Source of the DNA: Antedon mediterranea
Lineage: Eukaryota; Animalia; Echinodermata
Length of the DNA: 64,000 nt
Direction: 5' to 3'
Assembly: GCF_964355755.1 (NCBI RefSeq)
Contig: NC_092677.1
Coordinates: 1,510,101-1,574,100, forward strand
Part shown: positions 1,462-55,000 of the stretch, in pieces
Position numbering within the stretch: position 1 is the stretch's first letter
Layout: each line of letters opens with the position of its first letter
Translations under genes and position numbers: made by a program
The notes under the pieces: generated by a model
Database searches by the model: none
Seen by the model: only the letters and a program-made list of their open reading frames with translations
What the model was told of the DNA's origin: nothing

Positions 1462-4441
1462 ATGATGACTTTTTGTTTGCTGCTATTTGTTCTTGTATTT
1501 GGTAAGTACCAGGCTTTAATGTTTTGTGGGTGCTACTATAAGTTAAGTCTTTGTCTATGTAGAGCATCTTGTGTATATGTTTGTCTTATATGTTCTAGTG
1601 CAGTATATGGAGAGCCATCTCGATAGTGCTTTGCACTCATGGCAATCCTCAGGGTGCTGCACCGCTGTGTTGTCATGTATTGTTGTGCCTGAAAATTGAA
1701 TAAAATAAAAATAAAAAATAAAATTAACATTTGATTTTCAATTTTTTTTATAAAACCATATACATGTAGGCCTATAGTACATTTCCGTCATTGTTTGAGA
1801 TACAAATAATCATCATGCATGTTATTTTCGAATTTATAGAGGTCGTTCTAACTTAGGTTAACAATTATAAAAGTAAACTATTAATTACAAAATCTTAAAA
1901 TTTGCCGGACCACTGGTTTGGTTTGTGTGAGAGCCCAGAACAGAAAACACAATAGAAAGAATGCATTCACTAGAATGTTGATTTTTTTAGTATCTTTCTG
2001 ATTTTAATACTTTGCAGCATAATGTTATCAATTAATCAAATTTATTCACCTCCCTTAGGAGAAACATATAAAAACTGTACAGCAAAATAAAACACATTAA
2101 AATAAAGATTCACACGAATCAATAGATTAAAATGGTTTTAACAAGTTAAATAAAGTGTCAAAATCATTGTGAAATAGGGCAGACTTGTTATATTTCAAAA
2201 TCAAGTTAAGTAAATTTATTTAGTTTCAGATGCAAGTGCACAAACACAAGTGACAGTGAATGCTGCTACAGCAAAAGTTGATGAAGCTGCAACAATGATG
2301 TGTACTTATACACTTGTACCAAACGATTCATTGCTGCAATTGGGTTGGACAAACGCAGATGACAGTGGTCAAGCAGTAGGAATTGCTCTTGTGATTTCTA
2401 CAGGAAAAACAAGCAATGGTCGATACAGTTTGTCCAATGATAATCTTATAATAACTGATGTTGAAAGAGGTGACGCAGGCAACTATCGTTGTGTTGTTGG
2501 CACCACTGGTGGGAATGGTGCTGAAAACTTTGCTAATCTCACAGTCTATTGTGAGTATATGTTTTGTAGCTAAAATGATTTTTTTTATATTTATTTAAAT
2601 ATGTTTATTTTAGGTACTGTACATTACATGTCAGTTAGTACAGTAATTTTAATTTCATCTTTGAATCATAAGTTTCACAATCAGAAAAAAAATGAAACCA
2701 ATAATTTGGATAAAAAGTAAAAAAGTATCATCATCTATTGTGATATTCAATGCATTTAAATTTTTCTGTTTCAGTGGTATGATGGTAATTAACTTTCCAA
2801 TTTATGTGTTTGCTTTTTAGAGTATAATGTATATAATTTACAAATTTAATCTAAACAATGTATATGATATTTAAAGAGAAAGGCAATTATAATGCAGGGA
2901 TGTTATTTACATCAGAACCAAATGAATATTCAATATCCTATGTGTTATATTGTTTGAGTACTACTAAACATTAGCAATTACTGTATTAGAATTGGTACAG
3001 TAGGCATGTCAATTGTGTAATTCTAAACAAATGATAATCCAAGAACTGTACAGTATAATTTTGCCATTTCAGATCTTGAAGTACCAGATTTAAAACCAGT
3101 AGAATTGCATGCCACATTAAATGAAACAGCGATATTTACATGTACTGAACTTGAAGGTTTACCAACACCAATTACTATCACATGGATCAAAGATGGCAAT
3201 CCACTTGGTGTTTCTAATACAGACAAGTATCCAACTTCTGATGCAACATTAACGATTAATGACGTTGATGAGAGAGATGAGGGAGCTTATCAGTGTAGAG
3301 CAGAGAATGCTGCTTACATGGGAGAGGAGGGAAAACTTAGTAATACTGCCACACTGTCAATAGGTTTGTGGGAATAAACATTTTAATAAATAATATATTT
3401 TATTAGCATCATTGTATAAGTATTTTCTGCATGTCAAATTATAAATGAAATATTCATATTACAGTATATTATGTCATGTGGTAACAAAAATAAAGCACAG
3501 CGAAAACAGCGATAACTGAAAGTTTTAGTTTATTAAAGTCATTTTTATAAAATGAACGCATGACGTGTCGGATTATTGCTTGTTTATTTTCTATTTCTTT
3601 AGCATTGGCGACAACTTCTTTTATATCCAGTAAGTCAACTACACGTAGGTTTTGTTTGTTTGCACTGCATTGTAAATTTCCGGGATTTTGAATTTGCGAA
3701 AAAAAAGGATAGCAATTAAAAGGGATATCCCGGCCCCATCCCCATGATCTGTATCATGCCTTAAAAGGGAAAATAATGTCAACACTACATTGTTGTAAAC
3801 ATGTTTAAAACACGGCATGGTAACACGATCCTTCTGTATTATTTGTTCAGTTTTAAGTACAGAAGTTCCAAAGAGAGAGAATGATTGTAATTCAACTGGT
3901 CTTGTTGTTGGAATGACGTTTGTTGGTGTGCTCATTGGATTCATTCTCTGTTTGATTGTGATTTTTATCATCAGCAAAATAAGGAAATCACATGCACAGG
4001 TAAAGTATAATTCAGAACGTAGAACCAAAAGCAAAAGTGTAGACTTAATGACCAAAGGTTTAATGAAATACCGCACACTTAAGTAATAGAAACTATTTTA
4101 ACATTAAATATGAGGTTTTATTTTGAAGGTACCGACATCGAAAAACACCAACCAATCAGGGGTAAGGATGTTACTTCAACTTTAAGTATTCAATTTCACT
4201 CGTCGTCGTCATCACCATCATTATTATCACTATTGCCACCAATATATCAATAAAGGTTTACACGATTTTCATTCTTTTTTTTTGCATGCACTAAACTTTT
4301 GTATTTTTTTAGCTGCAGGCGTATATGACTTATACTGGAGAGACAGATAAAGAAACAAACCACACATACCAAGATTTACAGAAGAAAGAAGATAATCAAG
4401 CTGTATATGTAAATGTTAAAGCAAAAAAGGACAAAAAATAA
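1462..4441 (+). CDS. Ig-superfamily receptor unit 1 (leader-V[class A]-I-stalk-TM-cyt-Tyr tail), apparently intact
   Basis: Predicted exons: 1462-1501 (MMTFCLLLFVLVF), 2224/2230-2550 (V: C..W..DAGNYRC), 3073-3363 (I-set: FTC..W..DEGAYQC), 3603-3629, 3851-3999 ([27 protein letters not shown]), 4129-4161, 4313-4441 (stop). All have GT/AG boundaries and compatible phases (1,1,1,1,0,0). Confidence 0.85.
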
Positions 4442-5882
4442 TATACATGTTTAAAATAAAATGAAAGAAATACATCACTATTATTATTCTTATTATTAAT
4501 GGAATATCATTGGTTTGAAACTACAATCACATACATCTTGTTGATTTTATTATAGAAATAAAGAGAAATCATAACCAAGAGAAAGTGTTTTCTTTCTCTT
4601 GATTTAACTCTTTAACGCGTACAAATTAAGAACAAAGAAATGTGAATGCTGCAATTTGTATTATCATTAACAAAACAAAAACCTATATGTACCTAAAGTG
4701 ACATAATCTACAAGGGGTATATAGCAACATGTGATATGTAAAGATAAAAACCACAGACATACTTGAAACATTTAAAAACAGATATGTAACTAACAATGAT
4801 ACATTTATTAAACATTGTATTTCTTGTTTTGATTTTTCTGAATTAAAACTTGCTTGTATTAGACCGAATTTGATTCGTTACTTTGATTTTAATGTTTGAA
4901 TGCATTAGTACATTGACATATAATGACATACTAGAATAGACTAGACAATCAATTCTTTTAACACGCTTGTAATTGTATTATTGTTATATAGCATTCTTTA
5001 ATTTAATTCGCCTCAGCTCGAGATGTGCTTTGGTTGCTTGCTGCCATATTTTTTCAAAGAGTTTAGTAATGATCAAATTGATTTTTAAACGTACAAACTA
5101 AATTCTAGGGACAAATTGGACGGAGGTTTTACAGTTATGTGCGATTCAGGTTCATTTCTTTTTTAGGAAAGACATTAAGAAATACCTATAAAAATAATAA
5201 GTAGTAGTTTGAACTACTTACTGTATAAATACAATTTTTAAAAGGCTAGGTGTTTTATGATTTTATTTTAAATAATTGATACTATTAAAAAAGAATAATT
5301 GTATCATCTTGATTTGGACGGAAGTACAGTGCACTATAATTATGAAGGAAGTAAAACTAATATATCACAAGTATGAATGGCAATCCAGAATCATAACAAT
5401 GACAGGAACAATCAATACTTCAGTATACAATACCGTAGAGTATGGTAGAGTGCAAGACAATAATAGTGAAATAGTCACCACCTAATAAAGCGGAACAGAT
5501 TTCCATATTTTACAGATTTGTCATGGAGGCGAAAAGTAAAAATGCGATGATTGTAAGTACAAATATTTAAAATATTTTTTCACACAATGACGCAATCGTA
5601 AATCGTTAGTAGCTATTTTTAAAAATGAAAAAAGGGAAATCTAACCATGCCAAAAAAAAACCAAACCGCAGTAAGGGGATACGCCTTCGTCGCTAACCAG
5701 GGATCGGTCTAATTGAACCCCGGTCAGTAACAGTTGTGTCTAGGTCATCCCGGACTCAGGCGCCTCCTGCCCTACAAAAATAGATCTAAAAGAATCTAGG
5801 TGGCATGGAAAAGGAGAAAAAAAGTAGATTAAAATATACTAGTAAAGTTGCATTTCCTTCTTGTAACTAGATTGCTGTAAAG

Positions 5883-8482
5883 ATGAAGAGTGTTTCCTTC
5901 TTGTTATTGTTTATTCTATATTTACGACGTAAGTACAATTCACCAAACTAACCCTATAATTAAGTATTCTCTAAGAGTTAATCAACTTCTTTGTTGATTT
6001 GAACAGTTATTAACTAAATATATTTTGCTTGTAAATTAAATATATCTCTATTTATGGTAGGTTTATGGCACACCAGGATGGACATACATAGTTATGTCCG
6101 TCCTAGCGTGCCATATAGGTTCAAACGCTAGATATAGGTTAGCTAAATACTGCATGAGGCCTGTGACATCATGACATACTCATGTTGCTTTACTGTCGCT
6201 GTGCTACTAATTGTGCAAATAGTTATATATACATATATATATATATATACATTTTCAGTATTTTTTGTTTGTATTGTTTGCATTTCCTATAATTTTGTTT
6301 CCAGAAATGACTAAAAAACCTTTCTTGACATCAACACAATGTTTAATAAATGGTAGTAGACATACAGCACATGTTTATAGCAAGCTATCTTTAAAAATGA
6401 GTAACAAGCTTTATCTTTTATAACACCAAATCAACGTAGGCCTACCCTAAACTCCAAAAACTTGCAATAAAAGTGCACAATATGCAGTATCTATAATAAT
6501 TACTGTACAGTTATTGTTTAGTTTTAGGTACACATGCACAAACTACGTCTGTGACAGCGGGTGGTGATGCAGTTAAAGTTGGTGAGGTTGCGACGATGAC
6601 GTGTAGTTACACACTTCCAAATGGAGAAGTATTGGATCGACTGGTTTGGTTCAGAGCTGATGCTGATGGTACTCCAGTATTAGGCGACCCTCTCGTGTCT
6701 ATAGTTGAAACAAGCAATGGTCGTTACAGCTTATCTAATGACAAGGATCTTATGATAAGAACTGTTGAAGTAAATGATGCAGGCAACTATCTGTGTAGAA
6801 TTGTAACACAAAATGTTCAAACTGCTGAAGACTATGATGAACTTATAGTTCAATGTGAGTTTGTCATTCCTTTGTTGTTCTTTTTCTAGTGAAAGTTAAA
6901 TACATAAACTCTGTTGGACAATCTTCAAATTACAATAAATAATTATAATCTAAAATTATCAAAATGTAAATAAAGCTGACGTTTTTATGGTATTACATTT
7001 AATAGTCAAAGTTTCTTTCCACTGCAGATCTTGATACACCCGTTGTGACTCCAGCCCAATTGTCTGTCAATATTGGTGAAACAGCACTGTTTTCTACTGT
7101 ACATGTTGGATTCCCAACACCAATTACCATCACATGGATCAAAGATGGCAAAGAACTTGATGTTTCTGATATAGAAAAGTATCCGTCTTCGGATGCAACA
7201 TTAACGATTAAGAATGTAAATGAGATAGATGCAGGGAGTTATAAGTGTATAGCAGAGAATGCTGTTTACATGGGAGAAGAAGGAAAACGTAGTAATACTG
7301 CCACACTGTCAATAGGTTGGTTGAAAAATAAACTTTTTAACTGTTGATACAAACATATCATATTTTTGAATATTTTCTGTAAGGACCAAACTGCCTGTCA
7401 TAATTAATTGGTTAATATTGCTATTATGTTATGTGGTAATAAAAATGAAGCACAGCTACACAACAAAAACTGCTTGAAGTTGGGGAAAATGTTTGGAAGA
7501 AAGAAAGGGAAATGTTTTAATACTGAACTTTTGCAAACGATAAGGTTTCTTATTTAGTTTTTTTTTTTAGTTATAGCAGGCTTTATGTGATATGACGTGT
7601 TTTAATAATATTACAATATTTCTCTATTTCTTTAGCACTGACGACAACTTCTTTTATATCCAGTAAGTCAACTACATGAAGGTTCTGTTTGTTTGCATTG
7701 TATTTTAAATTTCCGGGATTTTGCATTTGCGAAAAGAAAAAAAAAAGATAGAAATGGAAAGGATATCCCCCGCTCCACCCCAGGATCTGTATGAGTGCTT
7801 AAAAGGAAAATAAGTATGACCTTTGTATATTTGTCAACACTATATTATTGTAAAAAATTAAATTAAAACACATTGTAACACTATATCCTTCTGTATTATT
7901 TGTTCAGTTTTAAGTACAGAAGTTCCAAAGAAAGAGAATGATTGTAATTCAACTGGTCTTGTTGTTGGAATGGCGTTTGTTGGTGTGCTTATTGGATTCA
8001 TTATCTGTTTGCTTGTGGGTTTTATCATCAGCAAAATAAGGAAGTCACATGTACAGGTAAAGTATAATTCAGAAAGTAGAACCAGAAGCAAAAGTTTAGA
8101 CTTAAAAATAATGACCAAAGGTTTAATATACCGCATACTTAAGTAATGGAAACTATTTTAACATTAAATATGATATTTTATTTTAAAGGTACCTACATCG
8201 AAAAACACCAACCAATCAGGGGTAAGGATGTTACTTTAATTTAATTATTCAATTTCACTCGTCGTCCTCACTATTGTCACCAATATATCAATAAAGGTTT
8301 ACACGATTTTCATTCTTCTTTTTGCATGCACTAAACTGTTGTATTTTGTTTAGCAGCAGGAGTATATGACTTATACTGGAGAGACAGATAAAGAAACCAA
8401 CCACACATACCAAGATTTACAGAAGAAAGACGATAATCAAGCTGTATATGTAAATGTTAAAGCAAAAAAGGACAACAAATAA
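5883..8482 (+). CDS. Ig-superfamily receptor unit 2 (V class C), apparently intact
   Basis: Exons 5883-5928 (MKSVSFLLLFILYLR), 6522/6528-6854 (V), 7028-7315 (I-set lacking the B-strand Cys), 7636-7662, 7908-8056 (TM), 8189-8221, 8354-8482 (QQEYMTY..TYQDL..VYVNV..*). Phases are compatible. Confidence 0.85.
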
Positions 8483-9497: not shown

Positions 9498-12400
9498 ATG
9501 GAGGCAAGATGTACAAGTGCGATAGTCTTCTAATTGTTAAACTTTGTGGTTGTAAGTACAAATATTAAAAATATCTTCTTTTTTTTTCACAAAATGACGC
9601 AATCGTAAATCGTTATTTGTTTAATTTAGTTTCAGATACAAGTGCACAAACACCAGTGCCAATGGATGCTGCTAAAGCCAAAGAGTTTGAAAATGTAACG
9701 ATGGTGTGCACTTATACATTTCTGAAAGGAGATTTATTGTTGCAACTGGCTTGGTCAAAAACTGATGACAATGGTCAACAAAATAGGACCTGCTCTTGTG
9801 GTTTCTACAGGACTAACAACCAATGGTCGATACAGTTTGTCCAATAATAATCTTATAATAACTGATGTTGAACGAGGTGATACAGGCAACTATCGTTGTG
9901 CTTTTAGCACTAATCTTGGAAATTCTGGTGAAAACTTTGCAGCACTCACAGTCAATTGTGAGTATAATTATATACTGTGCAGAATTTGTATTTAAAACAA
10001 TAAATCTCTTAATTAAAGTAATCTTTTAACCTAAAATGTTGATTTCCGACTTTTAAAGTTACTTTAGAATTTAGTTCAGTAATTAATTAGTAATAATAAT
10101 AATAACAGTACAGTAATTTTGAATTCAAATGAACATCAGCTAGTTTAAGCGGATGCTAGTCAAGTCGCCCCATCGCAAAGTCGCCCCTTACAAAGTCGCC
10201 CCTTACACAGTCGCCCCATCGCAAAGTCGCCCCAAAACAAAGTCGCCCCGACACAGTCGCCCCATCGCAAAGTCGCCCCAACGCAAAGTCGCCCCATCGC
10301 AAAGTCGCCCTAACACAAAGTCGCCCCATCGCAAAGTCGCCCCAAAACGTTAAAAGTGCGTAAAATGTCGCAATGATACACAAAATAACACGGAACGTGT
10401 AGGCATAAAAGGGGAAGCCCCGCCATGTAGTCTCAGGTCACACGATCATCCCCCATCATCATGAGGGAGGAAGCCCCCAACTAATCACTCCGCGCGCGGT
10501 CGCACTAACGTGCTAGCTCACCACCAGAGGGAAACCCCCGTAATTACTCCGCCGTTGTCGCACTACACAACGCACCATCTGAAGATGGGGAAACCCCGCC
10601 GGAGTTTTACGATATCAGTCGCGTTCGAAATCGGTCGAGTTTAATTTTGGTCGCGATAAAATGATGTTATACGATCTAGATTATTTTTACTTTGGTCGAT
10701 AAATATTTATTATTATTAGGCCTATATATTATATTAATAATTGATTTTTGTTTCTATTTTACAGGTCTATGATGAGAAAGATGTGTGCCTTCAAAAATGA
10801 CAATTTGTAAACATAGTTTAAGATTATAGTATTATTCAGCATAATGTCATTTAACAGTACATAATTATTTAAATGTGAAATATTTTATAGGGAACGTAGG
10901 CTACGTCTGTGACTTTTATTTTATATGCAACAAATTACGTAAAACAATTTATTTATAAACATTCAGTTTACTAATAGTATTACAATGAACATTGATTATA
11001 AGCCTGGAAAGGCAATCCCATCATTATATCCATTATAAAATTGCATCATCACCACTATATGTCGTAAATGATGACGTGCGTGTGTGTATGTATTCGTCGT
11101 ACGTCCGTGTACGTACTATTCCGTGCATCTTCACTGTCTTGTTTAATTTATTTAATAAAATAATATATTTAATTAAATAAACACCCGATATGAGGATATT
11201 TATTAGGCATGAGATAATTAGAATGTTCTATAACCAAAAGGGTTGAAAAGAATTTCTTCAGTAAAATGATCATTTTGCTGTTGAATAAAAAGCGACTCGC
11301 AATCTGAAACATTCTCTGAAACCAATCGGAGCAAGCTGCGCCTTCTGGTATCTGTTTCCTCACAGTGCTACGACGTCTTTCTGCTGCCCGTCGGGGATTC
11401 CCCTTTTTAAAAAACACGCACACGATACGATGGTTTTCCATGGTCAAAATGTAGCGTACGATCATATCGGCGATGAAATCCTTTTTTTTTATTTCTTCAT
11501 TTTGAAAAGTCATAATAAAATTAAATAACAATAGACACATAACTTGTCAATAAATGCAAAGTGATCAATAAGTAGCCTATAACACTATTGTCTTACAACT
11601 ACTGTAAATCTATACGAAGGCCTATTACACATTTATACACTTATTATATTATCATAAAAAATGAGCTGGTAGGTTGAAGAAAGATTCGTAATTGTGGCTC
11701 TGGTAACTAATTTTAAAATCATATTAAATTAACATTTTCGAAACTATAAATCAGGGATAATCTTTTTAGAACTTTCAAACAAGGGACTGTTTTTTTAATG
11801 ATTTCTAAAAAGCACATCACTTCATTAAAACCTGTAAAATAAAAATAAAAAATACAAATTATGTATATAATAGGATAAACATTATAATGTAGGCCTAGGC
11901 CTATACGACATTTAGCGCGACCAAAGTAACAACGCAATCGATATCAAACGCAACCGATATGATTAAAACAGCGTACTACTAGTAATAGCGGCGGCGCTTC
12001 ATAGTCATACCGAAATAAAACCGTGGGCGACTTTGCGATAGGGCGACTTTGCGTTGGGGCGACTTTGCGATGGGTCGACTTTGCGATGGGGCGACTTTGT
12101 AATGGGGCGACTTTGCGATGGGGCGACTGTGCCGGGGCGACTTTGTTTTGGGGCGACTTTGCGATGGGGCGACTTTGTATTGGGCGACTTTGTATGGGGC
12201 GACTTTGCGATGGGGCGACTTGACTGGATCCCGTTTAAGCATATACAGGTCAAATAGCAATGTAAGTTAACAACAGTGAAAACTGATGAGACAAATTTTC
12301 CTATGCATTAATGACGTCTTAGCCAATTTTAGACGACGGCTGTATATATGGTAAGCGCATATCGGAAGTATTATATCGCAATTGTCCTGATATCATATAG

Positions 12401-13870
12401 TATGTTCATCCCTAATACATTGTCAAACTATGGTTACCGGTAAATTCTTAATACGCAGATCTTGAAACACCCGTTGTGACTCCAACCAAATTGTCTGCAA
12501 AGATGGATGATACAGCAGAGTTTTCTACTGAACCTGTTGGATTCCCAACACCGATTACCATCACATGGATCAAAGATGACGTCACACTTGATATTTCTGA
12601 CATGCAAAAGTGTCCGCCTTCTGATGCAACATTGAAGATTAATAATGTAAATGAAACGGATGCAGGAGTGTATAAGTGTAGTGCAGAGAATGGTGCTTAT
12701 AGTGGAGAAGAAGGAAAACTTAGTAATACTGCCACACTGTCGATAGGTTGGTTGGAAAATAAACATTTTAAATGTTGATACAAAAATATTATATTTTATT
12801 GATATTTTCTGTAAGGACTAAATTGCCTGTCATAATTAATTGGTCCTATTATGCTATGTAGTAATGAATCTAAAGCACTGCAGCTACACAACAAAAACTG
12901 GAAGTTGGGGGAAATGTTTGGGAAAAAGAAGGGAAATGTTTTAATACTGAACTTTTACATTGGTGCGATACGATAAGGTTTCTTATTTTTTTTTTTTAAT
13001 TATAAAAGGCTTTTTGTGATATGACGTGTTTTACTAATATTGCTTGTTTCTCTATTCTTTTAGCATTAACGACAACATCTTTTATATTCAGTAAGTCAAC
13101 TACACGTAGGTTCTGTTTGTTTGCATTGTATTGTAAATTTCCAGGTTTTTGCTTTTGCGAAAAGAAAAAATGATAGAAATGGAAAGGGATATCCCCCTCC
13201 ATCCCCATGATCTGTATCACTGCTTAAAAGGGACAATAATGATGTCCTTTGTATATTCAACATTACATTATTGTAAACATGTTTAAAACACATGGAAACA
13301 CTAATCCTTCTGTTTTATTTGTTCAGTTTTAAGTAAAGAAGAAGTTCCAAAGAGAGAGAATGATTGTAATTCAACTGGTCTTGTTGTTGGAATGACGTTT
13401 GTTGGTGTGCTCATTGGATTCATTATATGTTTGATTGTGGTTTTTATCATCAGCAAAATAAGTAAGTCACATGCACAGGTAAAGTATAATTCAGACAGTA
13501 GAACCAAAATAAAAAGTGTAGCCTTAAAATGACAAATAGTTTAATGAAATACCGCAACTTAAGTAATGGAAACTATTTTAACATTAAATATGATGTTTTA
13601 TTTTGAAGGTACCTACATCGAAAAAAACCAACCAATCAGGAGTGTGGATGTTACATCAACATTCATCATTTATTATTATTACTATTGTTACCAATATATC
13701 AATAAAGGTTTACACGATTTTCATTCTTCTTTATTTTTTTTTTAGCAGCAGGCGTATGTGACTTATACTGGTGAGACATATAAAGAAACAAACCACAGAA
13801 GATTTACAGAAGAAAGATGATAATCAAGCTGTGTATGTAAATGTTAAAGCTAAAAAGGACAACAAATAAA
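9498..13870 (+). pseudogene. Ig-receptor unit 3 (V class A), pseudogene
   Basis: The leader at 9498 hits TAA after a 1-nt deletion relative to the intact copy at 38708. The V exon (about 9630-9957) has a +1 frameshift near 9780 (split ORFs 9617 and 9765). The I-set exon (about 12460-12747), stalk and TM are present. The tail exon has a frameshifting deletion before the YQDL motif. A 2-kb TIR element sits in intron 2. Confidence 0.8.
10151..12232. mobile_element. Non-autonomous Mutator/foldback-like DNA transposon with tandem-repeat TIRs
   Basis: About 200-bp arrays of about 16-bp units (caaagtcgcccc+nnnn) at 10151-10350 and their reverse complement at about 12025-12231. The termini are ggatgctagtcaagtcgcccc / ggggcgacttgactggatcc. 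The element is flanked by direct repeat gtttaagc (10143-10150, 12233-12240; 8-9 bp TSD). No transposase was recognised inside. Confidence 0.8.
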
Positions 13871-14856
13871 ATACATGTTTAAAATGAAAGTAAATAAATA
13901 TATTATTATTATTAATATTAAAGGAATATCATTGGTTTTAAACTACAATTACATACCTCTTGTTGATTTTATTATAAAAATAAAGAGAAATCAAAACATT
14001 GAGAAAGTGTTTTCTTTCTCTTGATCTCTATAACGCGTACAAATTAAAAACAAAGAAATTTGAATGCTGTGATTTGTATCATCATTAACTAAACAAAATA
14101 TACACAAGTACTTATAGTGACATTGTATATGCCAATGTGATGTAACAACATTTGATGTAAAGATGAAAACCATAGACATACTTGAAAAATGTAAAAACAA
14201 CGATAAATTTATTAGAATTGTATTTCTTGTTTTGATTTGTTGGAATTAAAACTTGCTTGTATTAGACCAACTTTGATTTGTTACTTTAAATTCAATGTTT
14301 GAATGCATTACTAGTACATTGACATATAATTATTCCAGCATTGAAGGAAAATAAACTTGACAATCAATAATTTTAACACCAATTTTAATTTAATTTGCCT
14401 TCAAGATGTTGCTTGCTGCCATGGTTTTTCAAAGAGTTGAATAATGTTCAAATTGATCTTTAAACGGAAACAAATTAATTCTAGGGACAAATTGGACCGG
14501 GTTTGGGTGCAATTGAGGTTCATTTCTGTTTTTAAGGAAGACATTTTAGAAATACCAGTTTGAGTTTGAACTGTTTGAACGTACTGTATAAATAAGGCCT
14601 AACACCATGTCTTTAAATAACGGTAACTAATTGAAAAGATTAATTTGATCATCTTGATTTGGACGCAAGTACATTACACTATAATTATGAAGGAAGTAAA
14701 AATAATATAATACAACAATGAACGGCAATTCATCTCAATCATAACAACGACAGGAACAACAACAACAACAGTATACAATACCGTAGAGTGCGAGACAATA
14801 AAAGTGTAGTCACCACCTAATAAAGCGGAAAAGATTTCCATATTCTATAGAACTGC

Positions 14857-16673
14857 AACGAAAGCAAAATGTACAAGTGCGATAGTGCTGTTGTTGTTGT
14901 AAGTACAAATATTTAAAAAAGATTCACAAAAGGACGCAATCGTAAATCCCTATTTTTTCGGATTTTTTATTTTAGTTGCAGATAGAAGTGGTCAAACACC
15001 AGTGACAGTGAATGCTGCAACAGCCAATGTAACAATGATGTGTACTCCTACATTTCTGACAGGAGATTCATTGCTTACTGGCTTAGTCGACAGGTGATGA
15101 TAGTGGTCAACAAGAATTAAGAAGTCCTCTTGTGATTTCTAAAACCAACCAATGGTCGATACAGCTTGTCCAATAATAGTCTGATAATAATTAATGTTGA
15201 AAGAGATAATAATAACTATCGTTGCGCTGTTAATACTAATTTAGGAAATGATGGTGAAACCTTTGCAGCACTCACTGCCAATTGTGAGTAGTAGATGATG
15301 CATTTTATACAGAATTTACACTTATTGACTTTCAAAGTGAGATGATGCTTAAAAATATAAAATATAAAATCAAATGCCAATTAATTATCTGGTTGGGGTG
15401 CACTGTGAGTAAAAAATACAAATTAAGTTCAGGACAAAGTACAAAAAGAGCGAATGTGGCTGTCATAAAATATCATAAAAATACAGCTAGTTATGTGTCA
15501 TACATTTACGGATATATATTACATTTAGGTCTAATATTTGAAAAATATTTTAAAATTGGTAAATGTAAACTTTCCATACACAGATCTTGATGAACCAGTT
15601 TTTAACCTAATGTCTGTCAACGATGAAACCGCAACATTTAAATGTACTGAACCTGATGGATTGCCAACATCAATTACCACCACATGGATCAAAGATGACG
15701 TCAGACTTGAGATACTGTCGGTCGTCGTATTCGAGCAAGGGTGCTTAACTAACGGCTTTGTTGACTGTGTATGATTTTACGCTTTAGATAGCGAAAATTT
15801 GATTATATTCGTCGTCTCCTAACCGTCGTGTTTCGTAAAGTCCAAATTAACAATTAATGACGTTGATGATGCAGATTAAGGAGTTTATCAGTGTAGAGCA
15901 GATAATGCTACTTACAGTGGAACAGATGTGAAACTTAATACTGCTACACTGTCAATAAGTTGGTAGGAAAATAAACTTTCTATAACCAATTACCTGTCGT
16001 AATATGGTCCTTTATGGTTAATATTCCTATTATGCTATGTAGTAATGAATTTACACAACGAAAACAGGAAGTTGGGGAAAATGTTTGGGAAAAAGAAAGG
16101 AAAATGAATTCTAAACTTTTGCATTGGTGGGAAACGATAAGGTTTTTTATTTAGTTTGTTTTAGTAATATAAATAGCTTTTGTAATGAACGCATGACGTG
16201 TTTTACTAATATTGCTTGTTCTTTTCTATTTTTTTATCATTGACGACAACATCTTGTAAGCCCACATGATCTGCATGTGTGCTTAAAAAGTAAAATATGA
16301 CCTTTGTATGTTTGTCAACATTATACATTATTGTAAAACACATGAAAACACTGATCCTTATCTATTAACGAGTGCGGGCGTATATGCATTCAACTGGTCT
16401 TGTTGGAATGACGTTTGTTGGTGTGCTCATTGGATTCATTATTTGTTTCCTGTGGGTTTTATTATCAGCAAAAGTAACAATAAATAAAAAACAAAGAAGT
16501 CAAAGGTAAAGTATATTCTGATTCATAAAGTAGAATTACACAAAAATAGTAAAATGCTCAAAGGTTACATGAACTACGGTACACTGCACAAGTAATGAAA
16601 TGTATTTACATTAAGTTCTTGTTGATGTTTTATTTTAAAGGTATCTACATCAACAAACAGCAACAAATTAGGG
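14857..16673 (+). pseudogene. Ig-receptor unit 4 (V class A), decayed pseudogene
   Basis: Leader remnant without ATG. V exon about 14976-15283 has multiple deletions. The I-set exon from 15584 is interrupted by unrelated sequence (about 15711-15843). The TM (about 16390-16506) and microexon are degenerate, and the tail exon is replaced by a Helitron fragment. Confidence 0.75.
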
Positions 16674-16719
16674 GTAAGGATACCATACAACTTTCAATAC
16701 TAATTTTCACTCTTCATTA

Positions 16720-17483: not shown

Positions 17484-17498
17484 TTCTTAACAGAAGTA

Positions 17499-20400
17499 AT
17501 GGTGATATGTGAATGTGCACTAATTTTTCTGATTTTCCAAAGCGACTGTAAGTAGAAACTTAAATGTCATGCATGTTATTAGTATGGTCCTACTATTATT
17601 TTAACATAGACTATAAGACTGAAATGGCTATGGACGGTGACTGAATCTATCCAGCCTAGCATGTGCCCGCACACTCCGAAATCATGGAGTTTATGAAGAA
17701 GCTTAGAGTGGCTGACGCGATCAAACGCCTTTTTCCAGTCCAGAAAAATAGCATCAATAAGAGGATTGGCAATATCAAGGGTTTTAGCCCATTCATGGTA
17801 TAAAGAAGTAGCTTGAGTAACACATGAGTGGCCTGGATAAAATCCATGTTGAACAGGGCTAATAAAACCATTACGCTGCAAGTGTTGGAGGAGATAATCT
17901 GCCACAAAGCGCTCAAGTACTTTACCCACGACTGAACAAAGTGAAATAGGTCTATAATTCGATATTTCGTTTCTGTTACCAGATTTGAATATCGGAACGA
18001 CATTGGCTAGCTTCCAATCCAAAGGAACTCTACCCTGATCAAGAGATAATTTAAAGATCCTACACAGGATAGGAGAAATGATCGGGGCAGCCAAGCTGAT
18101 CCATTTGTTGTGATCGGTGAACGTGCAAAAAAATCATACCTTTTGTTGTTACACTATAACAGTATTATTATTATTAATATAATTATATTAATTAATTTAA
18201 AATGTCATCGAAGCGTGCGCATTGGCGATAAAGTAAAATACCTTATTTCATTGTGGGGAAGCCCTGAGTTCAGAGATCGGTTGGAAGTGAAAAACTGGCG
18301 TAAAAGCACCGGCAACAAAATGTCTGTGTTCAACGAGATGGCGGACACGAGAAGATGGGCCATCCTCATAAAGAAGGATTTAATATCCCAAACAAAATTG
18401 AAGGGGTCGTCGTATAAAGCGGCGAAAGACCGAGTAAATAAATCTGGAGCCGGTGCAAGTACGGGATTTGAACATTTTTCTGCCATATGATATTTTAGGT
18501 CATAGACCAAATATAAACCCAAACCCCAAAATGATCGGCTGGTTGGTATGCCCGACAACCAATCGATAATGCCGAGCACAAGTGTTCGGTCTAGGCCTGT
18601 AACTCCTAAACCAACCACTAATACTTTTAATAACAACGAAGGTAGGTCTATGCGTGCGTTAGAGTTTGGTCAATCGCCAGCGAGTGACATCATATCCGTT
18701 TGTAACGCAACTTCGTTGCAGTGAATCTGAACACTTTGCTCTTACGATGCTCATTAAAATATGACCGTGGCTGTGATACGAAAGCATAATTCCGTAGGTC
18801 TGAACATGAGTTTGGTTTAACACAAGTAGGTAAATTTGTGAGCTCTTGGTTTAACACATACGGTAGGTAAATATATGGGCCCTTTGAGAATAAACTTGCA
18901 ATACTTTGACAATACTGTAAATACCTATTAACTAGTTTTGGTCCTCATTTGAATCGAACATTTCTTACTTTGAATGTTCGTACTGTTAGATGTAATATAA
19001 AAATATATACAAATAAACTTTATTACTGAGATTGTGGTTATGCTCTACTTCTGTTAGATATATAAACACATTATTATATACAAATAAACTTTATACTGAC
19101 AGTTCCTTCTCAACGTTTGTATTAATTAATAATTACCAATAATATAAACGTCGTAGTGGTGTATCGTGACATGTACTTTAATATTTCAATCGATTATGAC
19201 AGTGACAGTTTTAACAAAGTATTAAATCGCAAATGTTTTACTGTATTTAGAGGTATATTATTTATAGGCCTATAAAACATGAACAAAATATTTCGTTACT
19301 GAGTGGATAAAGAATATATTTAAAAATTGTTCCTCTTTGTACCTATCCGCTTTCCCGTCCCTCAACCCTAATGTTACATACAAAACACAAATTGGGTTTC
19401 TTTAAGTGAGTCCAAATTTGGACTCATTTTGTTTCTCCTTCGGAAGTAATTCCCAGGGTGCTAATTTTAGTTGACTACATAAATCATCGTGTCTATTTAT
19501 TCGTTTCTGTAAACGACAATGTATTGTAGTCCTGTGGTACGTACATTTGAAATCGCCAGTTTTGTTACGCTGAAATTACTGTGTATTCGAGAACCATCTA
19601 GTATACATAAGTAGGCCTACATTTCCGTCATTATTTGAAATACAAATAATACAATCATGCGTTTAATGTTATTTCCGTATTATAGAGGTGGTTCAAACTT
19701 AAGTCGACAATTAAATAAAAAACTAATAATTTAAAATTAAATTCCCGTTGTCTGTGTTTGCGCGGGTGTGTCGATTTGTTATCCTGCCGGACCACATAGT
19801 TTGGTTTGTGAAACCAGAACAGAAAACGATAATAGAGAGAATGCACATTCACTAGAATTGTATTTTGTTTTTTTCGTCTTTCTGATTTTAACACTTTGCA
19901 GCACAATGTTATATTTCAAAAGCAAGTAACGTAGCGTATTGTAGTTTCAGATACAAGTGCCCAAACACAAGTGTCAGTGGATGCTGGTACAGCGAGAGAG
20001 TTTGACAATGTAACAATGGTGTGTACTCCATCATTTCTGTCAGGAGATTCATTGGTTCAACTGGCTTGGACAAAAGCTGATGAGAATGGTAAACAAGAAG
20101 GAAGTGCTCTTGTTATTTCTCCAGGATTAACATCCAATGGTCGTTACAGTTTGTCCAATAATAATCTTATAATAACTGATGTTGAACGAGGTGATGCAAG
20201 CAACTACCGTTGTGCTGTTAGCACCAATCTTGCAAATCCTGGTGAAAACTTTGCAGAACTCGCAGTCAATTGTGAGTACAGTATAGTAGAATTTTATGAA
20301 TATGCAATTATTTCTTCAAATACAATAAATAAGTGTGAGGATGATACTGTATTTTAGACATTATAATTTGTTTATGTTTAATGTAAGAACATTTGGACAT

Positions 20401-22377
20401 ACAAGCTACAGTAATTGTTTTGTGTTAACTTATTTTAAACAAGTAGTGTATTTTGTTATTGATTTCATTTGTCAGTTAATTGTGAGTATAAAGTAAATTA
20501 TGATGAATATTTGTAATTTGCACATTTCTTCAAATTATAATAAATTTTTATCAGAATTTCAAAGCGAGATGATGATGCTTAGAAATATACTTATACAGTA
20601 CTGTATTAAAAGCTTAGACTTATCAATGTTGTTGAAAAAAATAATTATTTGAAAATGTTTTGTCTTGAATGTTTAGACATACAATATTGTACTTGTCGAT
20701 AAATAGTATTGTGTAGCAATTGAAACAATTAATCACAAATTATTATCAAATTTATCATAAAAATAAAGTTGTGTTTGTGGTAATACATGAGTATTTTAAA
20801 AATTGTTATGTAAGTTTTCCATGAACAGATATTGACAACCCAGGTTTGAAGCTAATGTCTAACGATGATGAAGCAGCAACATTTGAATGTACTAAACCTG
20901 ACGGATTCCCAACACCAATTAGCATCACATGGATCAAAGATGACGTCACACTTGATGTGTCTGATACACAAAAGTATCCGTCTTCTGATGCAACATTAAC
21001 AATTAATGACGTTGATGAAACAGATGAGGGAGTTTATCAGTGTAGAGCAGAGAATGCTGCTTACAGTGGAACAGAAAGAAAACTTAGTAACACTGTTACC
21101 CTCATCACATTAGGTTGGTACGATTGGAATCAAATAGTTTCATAACTGTTAATTGATACAATGAATACATACTATATATAAACAGACATTTCATTCTTTT
21201 GGATCGTGTTTTCTCTACCACAAATAATTTTTCTTTTGTTTCTACACTGATATGGATAGCACTGGTGAGCTAACACAACAAAAATGGAACGCTTTAGTTG
21301 TTTGTTTTTTCTTATTATTATGCAGGTGTTTTGATATGAACGCTTGATACGTTTCGATAATAATGCTTTTTTATTTATTTAGAATTTACGAGTATTTCTA
21401 TATCCAGTAAAGCCTGGTTTCCATAAAATCGCTACACCGTGTCGCCGACTGCTGTCGCCGACAGAGCGTAGCGATTCTATGGAAACGCTATAATTTATCG
21501 GGGATCTAGTACGCGAGCGCTAAATATTCTTTGGTACACGCGTATACGACTCATCGCCGACAAAATCGGCAAAGTTGAACATGGTTGAACTTTGCCGATT
21601 TGTCAGCGATGAATTGGGGAGACCTCCCCGATGCGCGTCGGTGACATTTGCGCGTGTAGCGATTTCAATGGAAACGGTGTAGCGATTTTATGGAAACCAG
21701 GCTTTAGTCAACTATAAGTACGTTGATTTTTATTATAAAATTGTAAATTTCCGGGTTTCAACGAAAAGAATAAAAATAAATGAATGAAAATAAATACAAT
21801 CCGGGTTTGGTTCCAAAATAGACAAGCATGAAAATGGGACAAATCGATATGAGCATCGGTGTGTCTTAAAAGCAACAACGACAATTAGTATAAATCAGAA
21901 AAAAAAAAAGAAACTACGGTATATACAAAGGTTCCCTGGATCTGTACTGCTTACGCTCTGCATATGTATCACTTACACTTTAATATTATAAAAGGGTTAA
22001 TTTCATACAATTATGAAAACACTGACACAGTACTGATAATTGTTCAGTTTTAAGTACAGAAGTTCCAAAGAGTGAGGGCGTGTGTAATTCAACTGATTTT
22101 GTTGTTGGAATGACGTTTGTTGGTGTGCTCATTGGATTCATTCTCTGTTTGCTTGTGGGTTTTATCATCAGCAAAATAAGGAAGTCACATGAACAGGTAA
22201 AGTATAATTCTGAAAGCAAAAGTGTAGACTTAAATAGACCAAAGTGTGAATGAAATACCGCATACTTAAGTAATAGAAACTATTTTAACATTAAATATGA
22301 TGGTTTATTTTGAAGGTACCTACATCGAAAAACACCAACCAATCAGGGGTAAGGATGCTATACGTCACTTTCACTCG

Positions 22378-22411
<34 letters not shown>

Positions 22412-27654: not shown

Positions 27655-27712
27655 TTCACAAAATGACGCAATCGTAAATCGTTAATAGCTATTTTGTTTA
27701 ATTTATTTTCAG

Positions 27713-34100: not shown

Positions 34101-37100
34101 TTTAAAAAAAAATTATATCCAACATCTGCAGCACAGATTGAAAACAAAAATGGATCGAATTTCGAGTATACAGTACTGTACTTGCCTTTACGACGCCTGA
34201 GGGAATAGACACTTGTGAAACAGAGATTGGAATGTTCCATTCATCGCAAATCAATAATTTTTTAAAGAAAATCGGCCTGTCTTCAACATTATGATGCTGT
34301 ACTCTAGCTGTTCAACCAGTTTTCAGCTATCTATATATAAATTTACGTAAGGGCAAAATTCGATAAGTCTCGGTTAATTTATAGAATTTTTACTCGATGG
34401 TATATAAAGTTGGTTCATACTTTCGGTACTGATTTTAACCATCTGACATAACCCTGTTTACTAATTAAACTGAGTTAGGTAATTAGTTATTGACGAATAA
34501 AACGAATTTAGGTTCAACGATTTGCCCCAAATAGGGGTGTTTTCCGATCGTGGTATACACTGTCTAATGGATGTCCATCTTGAAAAATACCAGCCACAAA
34601 AATGCGAGGAGGCTTCGCATTTTCCTACCTCCTCCTACGATAATTGTTTTTAATAGCTGAAAACTGGTTGAACAGCTAGAGTACAGCATCATAATGTTGA
34701 AGAAAGGCCGATTTTCTTAAAAAAAATACTATTTTGATAGATTTAATATACGATTATACAAATGTATTGATTTGCGATGAATGGAACATCCCAGAGTTTG
34801 GTTTAACACAAGTAGGTAAATTTATGAGCCCTTGGTTTAACACATACGGTAGGTAAATATATGGGCCCTTTGAGAATAAACTTGCAATACTTTGACAATA
34901 CTGTAAATACTTATTAACTATTTTTGGTCGTCATTTGAATCGAACATTTCTTACTGTGAATGTTCATACTGTTAGATGTAATATAACAAGGCCAACAGCC
35001 ATTAAGTCGCGTGCTACAATGCATAGTGATACCGGACCGACAGACAGACCGACAGACCGACAGACAGACCGACCGACCGACATAGTGAACTATACTGACC
35101 GAAATTACTGAACATGTTTAAAAATGTTGAAATGTTTAAAAACATTAATTTTTTTTTAATTTACACGTGCGTAGCCTGTCACTTTCGACGTGCTCGTATA
35201 ACGTAATTTCGAGTTGAAAAGTAAGTCAAGAAAACAGAAATCGGGCAAAAAGTGTGCGCAATAACATTAACGCGCAGTGCGCGCGCAAAAATATGCGCAC
35301 TCATGGCAATTTTGTAAACGCTTAAAATTGCCTGAAATGTACTCTTATTTCATCGAAAATAAATTTTGAAAATGTTAAGCGCGCTTGCGCATGCGTTACA
35401 TGCGCTACGCACGTAATTGTATTGCCATATGATGATTTATGCCCTGAAATTTATGAGTACCAAATTTGATTTAATTGTGATTCATTGTTGTGAAGATATG
35501 ATTACAAACGTGATTTCGTTAAATCGTGCGTAGACCGCGTAATTTTTTATTGCGCACCGTGAAAACATAACCACATTGATTCCTGGCCATAAGGAATATA
35601 CTGTGAAAAATTGACCTAGCTAGATTAAACTGATATCAAGATAAGGTCAGAAAGCGATAAAACGCATAGTGATACCGGACCGACAGACAGACAGACAGAC
35701 AGACCGACAGACAGACCGACAGACAGACAGACAGACCGACCGACCGACATAGTGAACTATAGAGTCGCTTCCACGCGACTAAAAATATATACAAATAAAC
35801 TTTATTACTGAGATTGTGGTTAGGCTCTACTGATATATAAACACATTATTATATACAAATAAACTTTATACTGACCGTTCCTTCTCAACGTTTGTATTAA
35901 TTAATAATTACCAATAATATAAACGTCATAGTGGTGTATCATGACATGTACTTTGATATTTCAATCGATTATGACAGTGACAGTTTTAACAAAGTATTAA
36001 ATCGCAAATGTTTTACTTTATTTAGAGGTATATTATTTATAGGCCTATAAAACATATTTCGTTACTGAGTGGATAAAGAATATATTTAAAAATTGTTCCT
36101 CTTTGTACCTATCCGCTTTCCCATCCCTCAACCCTAATGTTACATACAAAACACAAATTGGGTTTCTTTAAATTAGTCCAAATAAAAAATTTGGACTCAT
36201 TTTGTGATAAGTTTCTCCTTCGGAAGTAATTCCCAGGGTGCTAATTTTAGTTGACTACATAAATCATCGTGTCTATTTATTCGTTTCTGTAAACGACAAT
36301 GTATTATAGTCCTGCGGTACGTACATTTGAAATCGCCAGTTTTGTTACGCTGAAATTACTGTGTATTCGAGAACCATCTGTGGGCACGACCTAGATGGTA
36401 CGCGAGCGAAGCGAGCGTACCATCTAGTTAAAAACAATTATCGTAGGAGGAGATAGGAAAATGCGAAGCCTCCTCGCATTTTTGTGGCGGGTATTTTTCA
36501 AGATGGACATCCATTAGACAGTGTATACCACGGTCGGAAAACACCCCTATTTGGGGGCAAATCGTTGAACCTAAATTCGTTTTAATCGTCAATAACTAAT
36601 TATCTAACTTAATTTAATTAGTAAACAGGGTTACATCAGGTGGTTAAAATCAGTACCGAAAGTACGAACCAACTTTATATACCATCGAGTAAAAATTCTA
36701 GAAGTAAGGCGCGAATTACCGAATTTTGCCCTTACGTAAATTTATATATAGATGCGGTAATGGACATAAAGCACAACTACACAGTTTAATTATAAAAGGC
36801 CTTTTTATAATATAGAACAAGACAATATATAAAACCAATAGATGCACTGACTATGTTTAAATAACATAATCATAAGTACTTTCTATTTCTTTAGCATTGA
36901 AAACACCTTCTTCTACATCCAGTAGGTCAACTACACGTACGTTTTGTTTGTTTGCATTGCACTAATTGTTTCCTATTTTTAGGTCATATAAGTTTGCGAA
37001 TAAAAAATATGACTATTGTATATTTGTTATGTCACAATCACATGGTAACTCTGATCCTCTTGATTTGTAAATCGTTCGTAAACAGAAGTTCCAAATAGTA

Positions 37101-37633
37101 AGGATGTATGTACTTCAACTGGTCTTGTTGTTGGAATGACGTTTGTTGGTGTCCTCATTGGATTCATTATCTGTTTGATTGTGGTTTTCATCATTAGCAA
37201 AATAAGGAAGATAAAATCACAGGTAAAGTATAATTCAGAAGGTAGAAAAAAAATAGTAAAATAGTCGAAGGTTTAGTGAAATACCATCACACGTAATGGC
37301 AAACGTATTATCATTCAATTTACTTGTTGAAGTTTTATTTCAAAGGCACCGACATCAAATAATGACAACCAATCAGGGGTAAGGAGACTAAACTTCAACC
37401 TTAATTATTCGCTTTCACTTTGATCATTACCATCATTGTTACCAATACACAATAAAGGTTTGCATGATTGTAATTCATCTTACTTTACTGTTGTATTTTT
37501 TTAGCAGCAGGCGTATATGACTTACACTGGAGAGACAGATAAAGAAACAAATCACACATACCAAGATCTACAGAAGAAAGACGATAATCAAGCTGTGTAT
37601 GTGAATGTTAAAGCAAAAAAGGACAACAAATAA
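31194..37633 (+). CDS. Ig-superfamily receptor unit 8 (V class B), apparently intact, with a 4.2-kb Helitron nest in intron 3
   Basis: Exons 31194-31242 (MSICECALIFLIFQSD), 31418-31753 (V), 31883-32173/32176 (I-set), 36895-36921, 37086-37222 (TM), 37346-37378, 37505-37633 (tail). Confidence 0.8.
34330..36427 (+). mobile_element. Non-autonomous Helitron (inner, same family, opposite orientation)
   Basis: A|TCTATATATA start and hairpin + CTAG|T end. Removing it restores the outer element sequence (ttttcagcta|ttaaaaac). Confidence 0.85.
34986..35783 (-). mobile_element. Helentron-associated (DINE-1/HINE-like) element nested in the inner Helitron
   Basis: Reverse complement of 26848-27654. The empty site atataa|aaatatat is seen at about 19000. 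Confidence 0.8.
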
Positions 37634-48197: not shown

Positions 48198-48233
48198 TAT
48201 ACATGTTTAAAATAAAAATAAAATATATATATT

Positions 48234-48266
<33 letters not shown>

Positions 48267-49202: not shown

Positions 49203-49492
49203 TAGAGGCGAAAGTTCAGGGGTAAAGATGTTACTTCAACTCTAATTATTCAATTTCACTCATCATAATTATTATTATTATTATCATTGTCACCAATATA
49301 TCAATAAAGGTTTACACGATAATTCTTTTTTTTGCATGCACTAAACTGTTGTATTATTTTTATCAGCAGGCGTATATGACTTATACTGGAGAGACAGATA
49401 AAGAAACAACCCACACATACCAAGATTTACAGAAGAAAGACGATAATCAAGCTGTATATGTAAATGTTAAAGCAAAGAAGGACAACAAATAG
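49203..49492 (+). pseudogene. Orphan tail exon (unit 11 deletion remnant)
   Basis: The leader remnant is joined directly to the end of the cytoplasmic microexon (gcgaaagt|tcaggggtaaag). Tail exon 49367-49492 is still open. Confidence 0.7.
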
Positions 49493-52085: not shown

Positions 52086-55000
52086 ATGAAGAATATGAAT
52101 AGTCTTATTAAATTGTTGCTTGTTTTTATGTTTCCATCTAGTAAGTATTAAAGTGTTCACTCACTCATCTGTTATTTGTTGCCGCTACACCTCACGACTA
52201 TAATTATCTTATCCTGATTGTGTTTGTTCAGCCTATAGGCCTATTCTATTTCAGTTGATTGGAATTAAAAATGTCAAAGCGGGGATGAATTATTATTGAA
52301 CATTCTATATAGTTTATTTATTTATTTCAACTATATTTTATGGTTGTCCATCCAGTCGAGGTTCATTAGGGACTCTCAGAATAACATGTATTTTTGGTCT
52401 GTACTGCAAGTGACTCCCTGACTTTTTTCTAGATGTTTTAATGCAAGTAGTAACTGTTACACCAGCTGTTGTCAAAGAAAGCGAAACAGCTACGATAGAA
52501 TGCAGCTACACAAATCCACCCCCAGCCCTGAACTTAATCAGTTGGTACCGTAGCGACGAACAAGGCAACCAAGAAGGAAATCCACTTGCTATTACTGATA
52601 CTACTCCATCACCAAATAGCCGTTATTCTCTAATAAGTGGTACAAATAGAGGTGATCTTAGGATTTCAGATGTTGTCAAGGCTGATGCAGGGAACTATGA
52701 GTGTAATGTGGTGTTTGCTGGCGGTATTATTATGAACAAGGTTACCAATCTTACCGTTCAATGTATGTATTAAAATTGAATGACATATACGAGATATATA
52801 CAGTCTACATTGTGCCTAGGTTACCTAGACAAACCGAGAGGCCTTTCCAACTCTGTGAGTTGCACCCTCATGTAGATGACCTCACCCATACATCTGTTAG
52901 TGCTTCAGACGATCTGTCCACTGAATTAATCCTTAAGTTATAAATAATAATTAAGAGGAATGTTTATTAATTAATTTAATATTAAAATTACAGACTGCAT
53001 TTTAAGGCATATAGTATTTGCTGTTTGTATGCGAGAACAGTGTTGATTGAGGTAGACACTTAACCTCCCCCAACATACACCCCTCCCCCTCACCTTTGTT
53101 AGGAAATGTTAGTTTGCAGATTTGTAATTATTTTCAAATTAGTGTCTGCATTCAATTTTTACAAATCAGAATGAGCACTAAACCCTAAAACACACAAAGG
53201 AATTTGAGTAAATTTGGAGAATATCTCCTATAAATTAATTAAGTGTGTCAGATGTCTTGGAGACAATTACTGACGGGAGGTGAAGGGCGCCCCCCGTGGA
53301 TTTGAGATGTTGTGTGCGGATGAGGAGAACGCACGAGAGGAGAGATGAACACGACGAAGAGAGTTGGATGGACATTTCCGAGTAATGATGTTTATATTAC
53401 TTGTTAGTTAATAATTTGATGTTTAAGAGGTATAATACGACGTTGGAAATAGAATTCGAGTGTGAAGATGTTTACTGTAGTTTGAACTTACATGGATTGT
53501 AAAGGATTTCATAGATTTAGAGTAGATTACTATACGAAAAGTTTGTTAATTTGTATTCAATGTTATCAACGGATCAAGATTGTTGAAGCTTGCCATGGTT
53601 GAAGTGTTACTGATATTGGAATTGTTTTAGTTCAAGACAAAGAATTGTTGATACTGTTTTGTACTACTTATTAAACTGTTGCAAAATTTTATACTTAATC
53701 GTATTCACTTTATTTGGATTCTTTACGATCTGAGGGGCTATACTTATTGATAACTCCCACACCCCCACATTACGAGAAATGGCGACGAGGATGGGATGTA
53801 GCAGTTTGTAAGTACTGTACAATTACCATAATTGTAAACTTCTAGCATAGGCCTAGATCCCGATTACGATTATTGACATTTCCGAAAGTAAACTAGGAAG
53901 CGGTTTAGCGATTCATTTATAAAGGAAGGATTTTACGACGTGGCGTACGTGTGATATAAACGGATTGTTGTGTTTACCGTTGCAGTGTTTTTGTTTAATG
54001 ACAGTTCGGCGATTGTGAAGTGCGCCACCTAGTTATGATTGAACTATAGTATTAATTCTAATTTGGAATAAGAGATCGAGTTACGTGTGGATATACTTTT
54101 GTGCAGATATTTTGATTGTGAAGGACGCCACCTATCAAGATTTGGACTAGTAATACTGTATTGTTGAAGCTAGAACTATTTTGACTTTTAAGCACTATAT
54201 TTATGAAACATTTTTATTTGTTGATTGATTGGAATTATTTTGATTGATTGATGGTATAAGTGTAATATTTATGGTAGAATAAGGGTAAAAACAAAAATTA
54301 TATACATTACCCAATAGATGTTTTTTAAGATTTTGGTGCATTAGTACATGTTAGAGATAAGCTCAGTAGTATATAAATTGTGTAATAAGAATTTATTTGT
54401 ACTGTAAGAGCTCAGTCTGAAATTATGGCAGAAGAACCAGCTGAAGATCAAGCGTCCATGCAGGGGATGATGCAGGCTTTGACTGATGTCCTACAAGGGT
54501 TAAGAGTTCAGCAAGCTCCACCTCCGGTGAAAATAGCCAAGTATAGAGGGTCTACAAAAGCAGATGGAGATTTGTCACTAAAAGAATGGTTAGATGACTT
54601 TCAGAGTTATGCCAACCACTATAACCTGACAGGAAAAGCAAAAGCGCAGTCATTATTGGATCATCTAGCAGGTTCAGCGAAAGAAGAGATTCTTTGCAGA
54701 GAAGGAAACGTGAGAGAAGACTATGACCAAGTAGTGACAGTGTTAAAGTCTTTGTTCGGACCAATAGAAACAGTACCTTCTCTAACTCGAGAATTCCACA
54801 ACCGGAACCAAAAAGATGTTGAGTCGCTAGCAGATTTTAGCCGTGTTCTAATGAGATTATATACAAAGATGGTAAAGGCAGCTGCAGTAGAAGAAGATAA
54901 GGATGCTTTGAAGAGGCTGAGGGATTATACATTGAAGGAAAGATTTGTTCATGGTGCCAAAGAAGGTTGGGTTAGGAGAGAACTAAGGAGAATAGAAATG

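Follow-up and report, generated by a model that had tools for sequence, protein, structure and literature searches.

The + strand of a 64,000-nt stretch of the genome of the crinoid Antedon mediterranea (contig NC_092677.1, positions 1,510,101 to 1,574,100; hereafter the window) carries a tandem array of one gene type, for which exon mapping gave the order leader (L), V-set immunoglobulin (Ig) domain (V), I-set Ig domain (I), stalk, transmembrane segment (TM) and two tail exons (C1 and C2). We consider it probable, at roughly 70%, that these genes form a tandem crinoid family of V-set plus I-set TM receptors which became mosaic via germline crossover and conversion, and which would be the activating partners of a receptor with predicted tyrosine-based inhibition motifs of immunoreceptors (ITIMs) that exchanges V domains with them. 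Germline unequal crossover and gene conversion are the likely origin of the mosaic exon histories, and the predicted proteins make it likely that the array encodes the activating side of a receptor pair with an inhibitory counterpart.

The array comprises 11 V-bearing units (U1–U11), the tail of an earlier unit (U0) and an orphan C2 exon. Six of the 11 (U1, U2, U5, U6, U8 and U9) contain a full-length open reading frame (ORF) after splicing, U3, U4, U7 and U10 are broken, and U11 stops shortly 3' of the TM. The stalk exon measures 24–27 nt (8–9 aa), C1 is a micro-exon of 33 nt, and C2 is rich in tyrosines. V occupies a single exon in 12/12 full-length copies, unlike the CTX/JAM family, where the V domain is split over two half-domain exons. 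Pfam recognised a V-set domain (E<=1e-5) in six of eight scanned V exons, Ig families in all eight and an I-set domain in 6/6 I exons, and also confirmed the EGF domain; the I exons of intact units contain one or two Cys. Three protein searches (6, 6 and 4 matches) returned only A. mediterranea proteins, among them a V domain 95% identical to a U9 V, except for two weak, unrelated Ig proteins. The predicted model of the U1 orthologue combines two Ig domains with a TM helix and a tail of low confidence, and a fold search gave only generic two-Ig adhesion-type matches at 15–27% identity.

The initial annotation had suggested that the types of leader, V and I are uncoupled and that recombination shuffles these modules in the germline. 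Incongruent trees, triplet tests and switches of the nearest neighbour support recombination between units, and the uncoupling has gained statistical backing from the tests described here. The V exons fall into classes A to D with only 43–64% identity between classes, whereas the TM exons share 80–96% and the C2 exons 85–98%. The proposed check for phylogenetic incongruence was run as approximately unbiased (AU) tests on sets of 9, 8 and 6 units, without U4 and U7: the V tree was rejected by the I data (p=5.7e-5, 2.2e-6 and 9.8e-6) as well as by the tail data (p=1e-37, 1.4e-4 and 4e-12), all at p≤1.5e-4. In clade tests, done without U11, U4, U9b and U9c, the I data rejected monophyly of class A (p=0.0046) and the V data rejected a grouping of U2 with U3 (p=0.0015). 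Exact triplet tests, which rate variation along a sequence can inflate, identified mosaics after Bonferroni correction in 2/8 I exons (U11 and U4 left aside) and in 6/6 blocks reaching from a TM exon to the next leader; one example is the tract 40059-40228 within the U9a I exon (p=1e-5). The units and the elements between them are as follows.

207..773, + strand: U0, tail of a unit starting upstream of the window; TM exon frameshifted, C1, C2
1462..4441, + strand: U1, ORF of 329 aa, orthologue of A. mediterranea XP_071959084.1; L 1462-1501, V class A 2230-2550, I 3073-3363, stalk 3603-3629, TM 3851-3999, C1 4129-4161, C2 4313-4441
5523..5552, + strand: relic MEAK-type leader, phase 0, with an in-frame splice to 5871 (compare A. 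mediterranea XP_071958620.1)
5883..8482, + strand: U2, open ORF; own leader, V class C 6528-6854, I without B-strand Cys 7028-7315, stalk, TM, C1, C2
7024-9964 and 12455-15290: two copies of a duplicated block
9498..13868, + strand: U3, pseudogene; leader of phase 0 with a stop, V class A 9636-9957 frameshifted, I without B-strand Cys 12459-12746
14852..16673, + strand: U4, pseudogene; relic leader, V class A 14982-15283 frameshifted, I with an insertion and stops, TM relic
17499..22613, + strand: U5, open ORF; class-B-type leader, repeat-filled intron, V class A 19951-20271, I 20829-21113, 24-nt stalk, TM, C1, C2
23787..25731, + strand: U6, open ORF; V class B 24033-24359, I 24463-24753
26789..30436, + strand: U7, relic; truncated leader, class A V represented by a 5' fragment at 27713, TM relic almost identical with that of U4
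31194..37633, + strand: U8, open ORF; V class B 31418-31753, I 31883-32173/32176, partial second I copy 32225-32378, stalk, TM, C1, C2
38708..44195, + strand: U9; one MEEKC leader, three class B V exons (39034-39375, 41337-41678, 42705-43046), one I 39956-40246, stalks at 40641, 42002 and 43387, one TM 43643-43791, C1, C2
45482..48195, + strand: U10, pseudogene; V class A open, frameshifts in both the I and the TM exon
49370..49491, + strand: orphan C2 exon preceded by a leader relic; 91% identity between the blocks 49216-49643 and 505-922
52086..63538, + strand: U11, a different ectodomain before an array-type TM exon; L, V class D 52433-52762, I 57712-58014, D3 58151-58372, EGF 58867-58974, a stop shortly after the TM, C2 with stops

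Comparison of homology blocks along the units revealed several switches of the nearest neighbour. The duplicated block begins just 5' of an I exon and ends just 3' of the next V exon, and its duplication placed the same I variant behind two V classes. This variant had been described as Cys-less; its position behind V exons of class C (7028) and class A (12459) holds, but only the B-strand Cys is absent and the F-strand Cys is kept. In U5, a leader of class B type, together with 94 bp of its intron, is followed by repeats, then by an intron resembling that of U1 and finally by a class A V. A partial U6-like I copy lies 3' of the U8 I exon, and the DNA downstream of U6 is U8-like to about C2 or the 3' untranslated region and U1-like thereafter (93–97%). 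Breakpoints thus occur in introns and in 3' non-coding DNA as well as within I exons. Because they also fall within I exons and 3' DNA, we rejected a cassette-type shuffling specific to exon boundaries; the exchange looks like general unequal crossover or conversion, which in its ordinary form keeps the exon phase automatically. The highly similar TM, tail and intergenic blocks would anchor misaligned crossovers and so re-pair ectodomains with tails.

Merged haplotypes or chimeric joins in the assembly might mimic such mosaics, and two block pairs are indeed 97–100% identical in places, while the best DNA runs contain only 55–58% of the sampled words. Most copies, however, are 70–90% identical and carry different insertions, and two of the unusual combinations recur in A. 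mediterranea models, namely MEEKC leader, class B V and U9-type I in P0015, and class C V with the Cys-lacking I in P0004. Moreover, a contig within one sequencing run spans the V and the start of the I exon of U5 with 26 differences over 19602-20952, and we regard an assembly artefact as very unlikely.

A candidate for the proposed inhibitory partner is present among the A. mediterranea models compared here, all of which are assigned to one contig of 28,587,047 bp. They contain a second TM type, which occurs together with a class A V (P0008) and with a class B V (P0017). The tail of P0008 contains the motifs VTYAQV, LTYVEV and TTYSSV, corresponding to two ITIMs and one immunoreceptor tyrosine-based switch motif (ITSM). 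The ITIM-type gene is represented by XP_071958242.1. In the array, the conserved tail motif is YQDL-x9-YVNV, whose tyrosines are kept, without an ITIM, and the TM contains two GxxxG motifs and no charged residue. P0009 is the orthologue of U1, as judged from its leader (12/13 identical residues), I domain (87/96) and remaining part (107/112). Its V domain matches that of U1 at 81/105 positions but that of the ITIM receptor P0008 at 102/105, whereas the regions of P0009 and P0008 following the I domain are identical at only 25/103 positions. Counted over the informative sites of P0009, agreement with P0008 versus U1 is 21:0 in V and 3:13 in I (Fisher p=1.6e-7). P0008 and P0009 would therefore place a near-identical ligand-binding domain on tails of opposite type, a statement confined to predicted A. 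mediterranea proteins. Since the I domain of P0009 still follows U1, a V exchange with a divergent rest shows the pattern of the Siglec-11/Siglec-16 conversion, which is described as spanning the ligand-binding exon of an inhibitory/activating pair (PMC5701461). Another predicted protein is similar in this respect: P0016 is identical to U6 in the TM (46/46) and C1 (11/11) and agrees in only 80/108 positions of V, and the leader MVICEC stands before V domains of class B (P0016) and of class A (U5).

If the array indeed provides the activating half, its tail would signal through tyrosine phosphorylation and recruitment of SH2 proteins; we take YxxL to be a site for a Syk-like kinase and YxN one for Grb2. 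Through conversion, the V domains of the activating and the inhibitory receptors would stay fitted to the same ligand.

Several observations weigh against this interpretation. The I and tail trees were not mutually rejected in AU tests of the six intact units, the I data did not reject class B monophyly (p=0.31), and the grouping of U2 with U3 in the I tree has weak support values (64/45). Within V, none of 60 + 60 triplets gave a significant mosaic after correction, and whole-exon dN/dS values of V (0.47-1.16) indicate relaxed constraint and no clear positive selection. Compared to the canonical tyrosine-based activation motif of immunoreceptors (ITAM; Yxx[I/L]x6-9Yxx[L/I]), the array motif YQDL-x9-YVNV ends in V and is only ITAM-like; the tail matches neither the strict ITAM nor the hemITAM pattern. 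The ITIM-type TM and tail are absent from the window, and the pairing relies on RefSeq models of A. mediterranea which could be mis-joined. Finally, the array receptors may also serve in adhesion.

Alternatively, the array may be a duplication-prone cluster of adhesion-type Ig superfamily (IgSF) genes in mostly neutral decay, whose mosaicism is a by-product of repeats and deletions with no selected role. The broken or truncated state of 5/11 V-bearing units, the position of several junctions at repeats or relic leaders, the relaxed dN/dS values and the generic Ig adhesion molecules among the fold matches would all suit it. Nevertheless, it appears unlikely, considering that the tail is 85–98% conserved with its tyrosines retained, that orthologous open models occur among the A. 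mediterranea predicted proteins, that the exchange with the ITIM gene is confined to V, and that a spliced tail contig was found at a depth of 896 in a probable RNA run.

This contig also bears on the proposal of the initial annotation that read-through splicing joins exons of different units. Reads from four runs were placed on 1401-21400, and 15 of 369 joints were displayed. A search over 1400-9400 found no run recorded as RNA; run X9 is probably RNA, and low coverage of single exons in X9 and X8 was given no weight. One contig of X9 connects the end of a U1-like TM with a C1 assigned to U2 and then with the C2 of U1. We rejected the joint 3997->8187 as a splice between units, as the next joint runs backwards, which is impossible by linear splicing. 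Because of this backward joint and because the C1 exons of U1 and U2 differ by one base, the contig agrees with splicing inside a single unit, namely a U1 allele or paralogue. This contig suggests that the tail is spliced as predicted, and each gene is likely spliced within its own unit. Splicing between units was thus not shown by this lone contig, and every intact unit has its own TM and tail.

Another reading is somatic combinatorial splicing in the manner of Dscam or protocadherins, with read-through transcripts joining leader, V, I and tail exons of different units in frame. The exon phases permit it, the A. mediterranea models P0013 and P0018 consist of V, I and stalk without a TM, model P0004 begins with a relic leader spliced into the next unit, and the X9 contig passes from a U1-like TM end to a U2-like C1. 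However, the same contig returns to the U1 C2, for which one unit suffices, and the many variable exons before one constant region that characterise Dscam and protocadherins are not found, as each intact unit has its own tail and only U9 has three V exons for one TM. AATAAA or ATTAAA hexamers lie within 1.1 kb 3' of 11/11 C2 exons, which is weak evidence in DNA of 68% AT content. Altogether, we judge combinatorial splicing across the array to be distinctly unlikely. U9 is the only locus with real cassette geometry, having one leader, three V exons, three stalks and one TM; as its short (330 aa) and all-exon (576 aa) splice forms are both open as modelled, it is a candidate for alternative V usage or for a 576-aa multi-V receptor.

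Some further splice features were noted in and between the units. Truncated MEAK-type leader relics occur at 5523-5552 and 26789-26823; the first splices in frame into U2 and is present in an A. mediterranea model, which suggests promoter capture. Weak donors (GTTGGT/GTTTGT) follow the I exons (3363, 7315, 12746 and others), where read-through meets a stop within a few codons and would give secreted V-I forms, comparable to model P0004. The TM and C2 exons have tandem acceptors that keep the frame (3851/3863, 4313/4319 and equivalents), and similar micro-variants exist among A. mediterranea isoforms.

As to the modules themselves, the six leader types of the initial annotation are real, with all nine listed leaders found at their ATGs. 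As sequence, the MEEKC-type leader does precede V exons of both class A (9498) and class B (38708), but the leader at 9498 belongs to U3, which is a pseudogene because this 54-nt leader has phase 0 and an in-frame stop and a frameshift affects the 322-nt V exon. An additional case, not listed before, is the leader type at 17499/23787/31194, which sits on the class A V of U5 and on the class B V of U6 and U8. Phase 1 at every boundary had been claimed; this applies to eight of nine leaders and fails for the one at 9498, one of the two key examples of the claim, which is in phase 0. The exon lengths are multiples of three in 10/12 full-length V, 9/10 I (one of the nine with internal stops) and 10/10 stalk exons as well as in the D3 and EGF exons, while the TM exon runs from phase 1 to 0 and C1 from 0 to 0. 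Because the units are copies of one gene, the pattern would represent about seven independent intron positions rather than dozens. Symmetrical exons are described as a general rule for Ig domains (PMC8274849), and near-uniform phase 1 introns were taken as a sign of past shuffling in sponge aggregation factors (PMC5400394), so that such uniformity is already described. We therefore rejected phase 1-1 as the mark of a special mechanism and consider it ordinary, since it is usual for Ig exons and the array copies are not independent.

With its tandem V-set, Ig and TM exons at one domain per exon, its domain-level recombination and its pseudogenes, the array is a diversified germline IgSF cluster of the Alr/FF/NITR kind. 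The Alr genes of Hydractinia are likewise clustered V-set plus I-set TM genes with a domain per exon, pseudogenes, domain-level shuffling and ITAM/ITIM tails, but they contain an Fn3-like spacer where the array has a stalk of 24–27 nt, and they belong to a cnidarian with a genetically shown role in allorecognition (10.1101/2022.03.04.482883). No Alr protein was among the 6, 6 and 4 matches of our word-based searches, whose reach is limited. The Fester family and FcoR of Botryllus likewise combine divergent ectodomains with C-terminal regions that are almost identical, exchange ectodomains and tails by recombination between genes and carry ITIM/hemITAM motifs, and differ by Ig plus Sushi domains, receptor/coreceptor gene pairs and motif switching by splicing (PMC12582321); a sequence link to them was not found. 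Teleost NITR genes have the same L-V-I-TM-C1-C2 exon layout (PMC2442602), and NITR and NILT are clustered multigene families with inhibitory and activating forms (PMC2442602, PMC3022915). Unlike NITR, the array lacks a six-Cys I domain, the FGXG J motif (in alignments) and a charged TM residue. Sponge aggregation factors resemble it in gene clustering and nearly uniform phase 1 introns but consist of Calx-beta/VWA domains (PMC5400394). In Siglec-11/16, an inhibitory and an activating gene are homogenised over the ligand-binding exon under relaxed constraint (PMC5701461). These are vertebrate lectins, whereas the putative activating form of the array has its own tyrosine tail and an uncharged TM. 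In this respect it is presumably more like CEACAM3.

At the 3' end of the window, the ectodomain of U11 (V-I-D3-EGF, 52086-58974) represents another gene type, of which D3 has no Pfam match. A 54-bp minisatellite (58954-62705, 69.5 copies) is derived from the 3' end of the EGF exon and contains 69 copies of its splice donor. The V-I intron of U11 harbours a long terminal repeat (LTR) element (53271-57638) with 507-bp LTRs of 100% identity, a TTAC target-site duplication and a gag-like ORF with PNMA and zf-CCHC matches, indicating a recent insertion. Introns elsewhere carry elements with inverted ends or copies (10145-12238, 21405-21705, 26843-27655/34985-35788), one of them at the U5 stalk donor.

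Recombining IgSF clusters with ITAM/ITIM tails are described in Hydractinia, Botryllus and vertebrates, and in the open-licence literature we found no description of one in crinoids or other echinoderms. The phase 1-1 pattern itself is without significance; the weight lies on the paired-receptor signal in an echinoderm, whose role would be immune recognition. Going further, crinoids might have independently evolved a natural killer (NK)-like paired system of one ITIM/ITSM receptor and an activating array that gains matched V domains by conversion, with somatic V choice at U9 and a function in allorecognition or as a counter-decoy against pathogens, a picture we hold to be speculative and rather doubtful. 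If the paired system is true, it would fill a gap among deuterostomes, provide candidate self/non-self receptors for feather stars and offer a case outside chordates in which V-exon conversion between receptors of opposing function can be tested.

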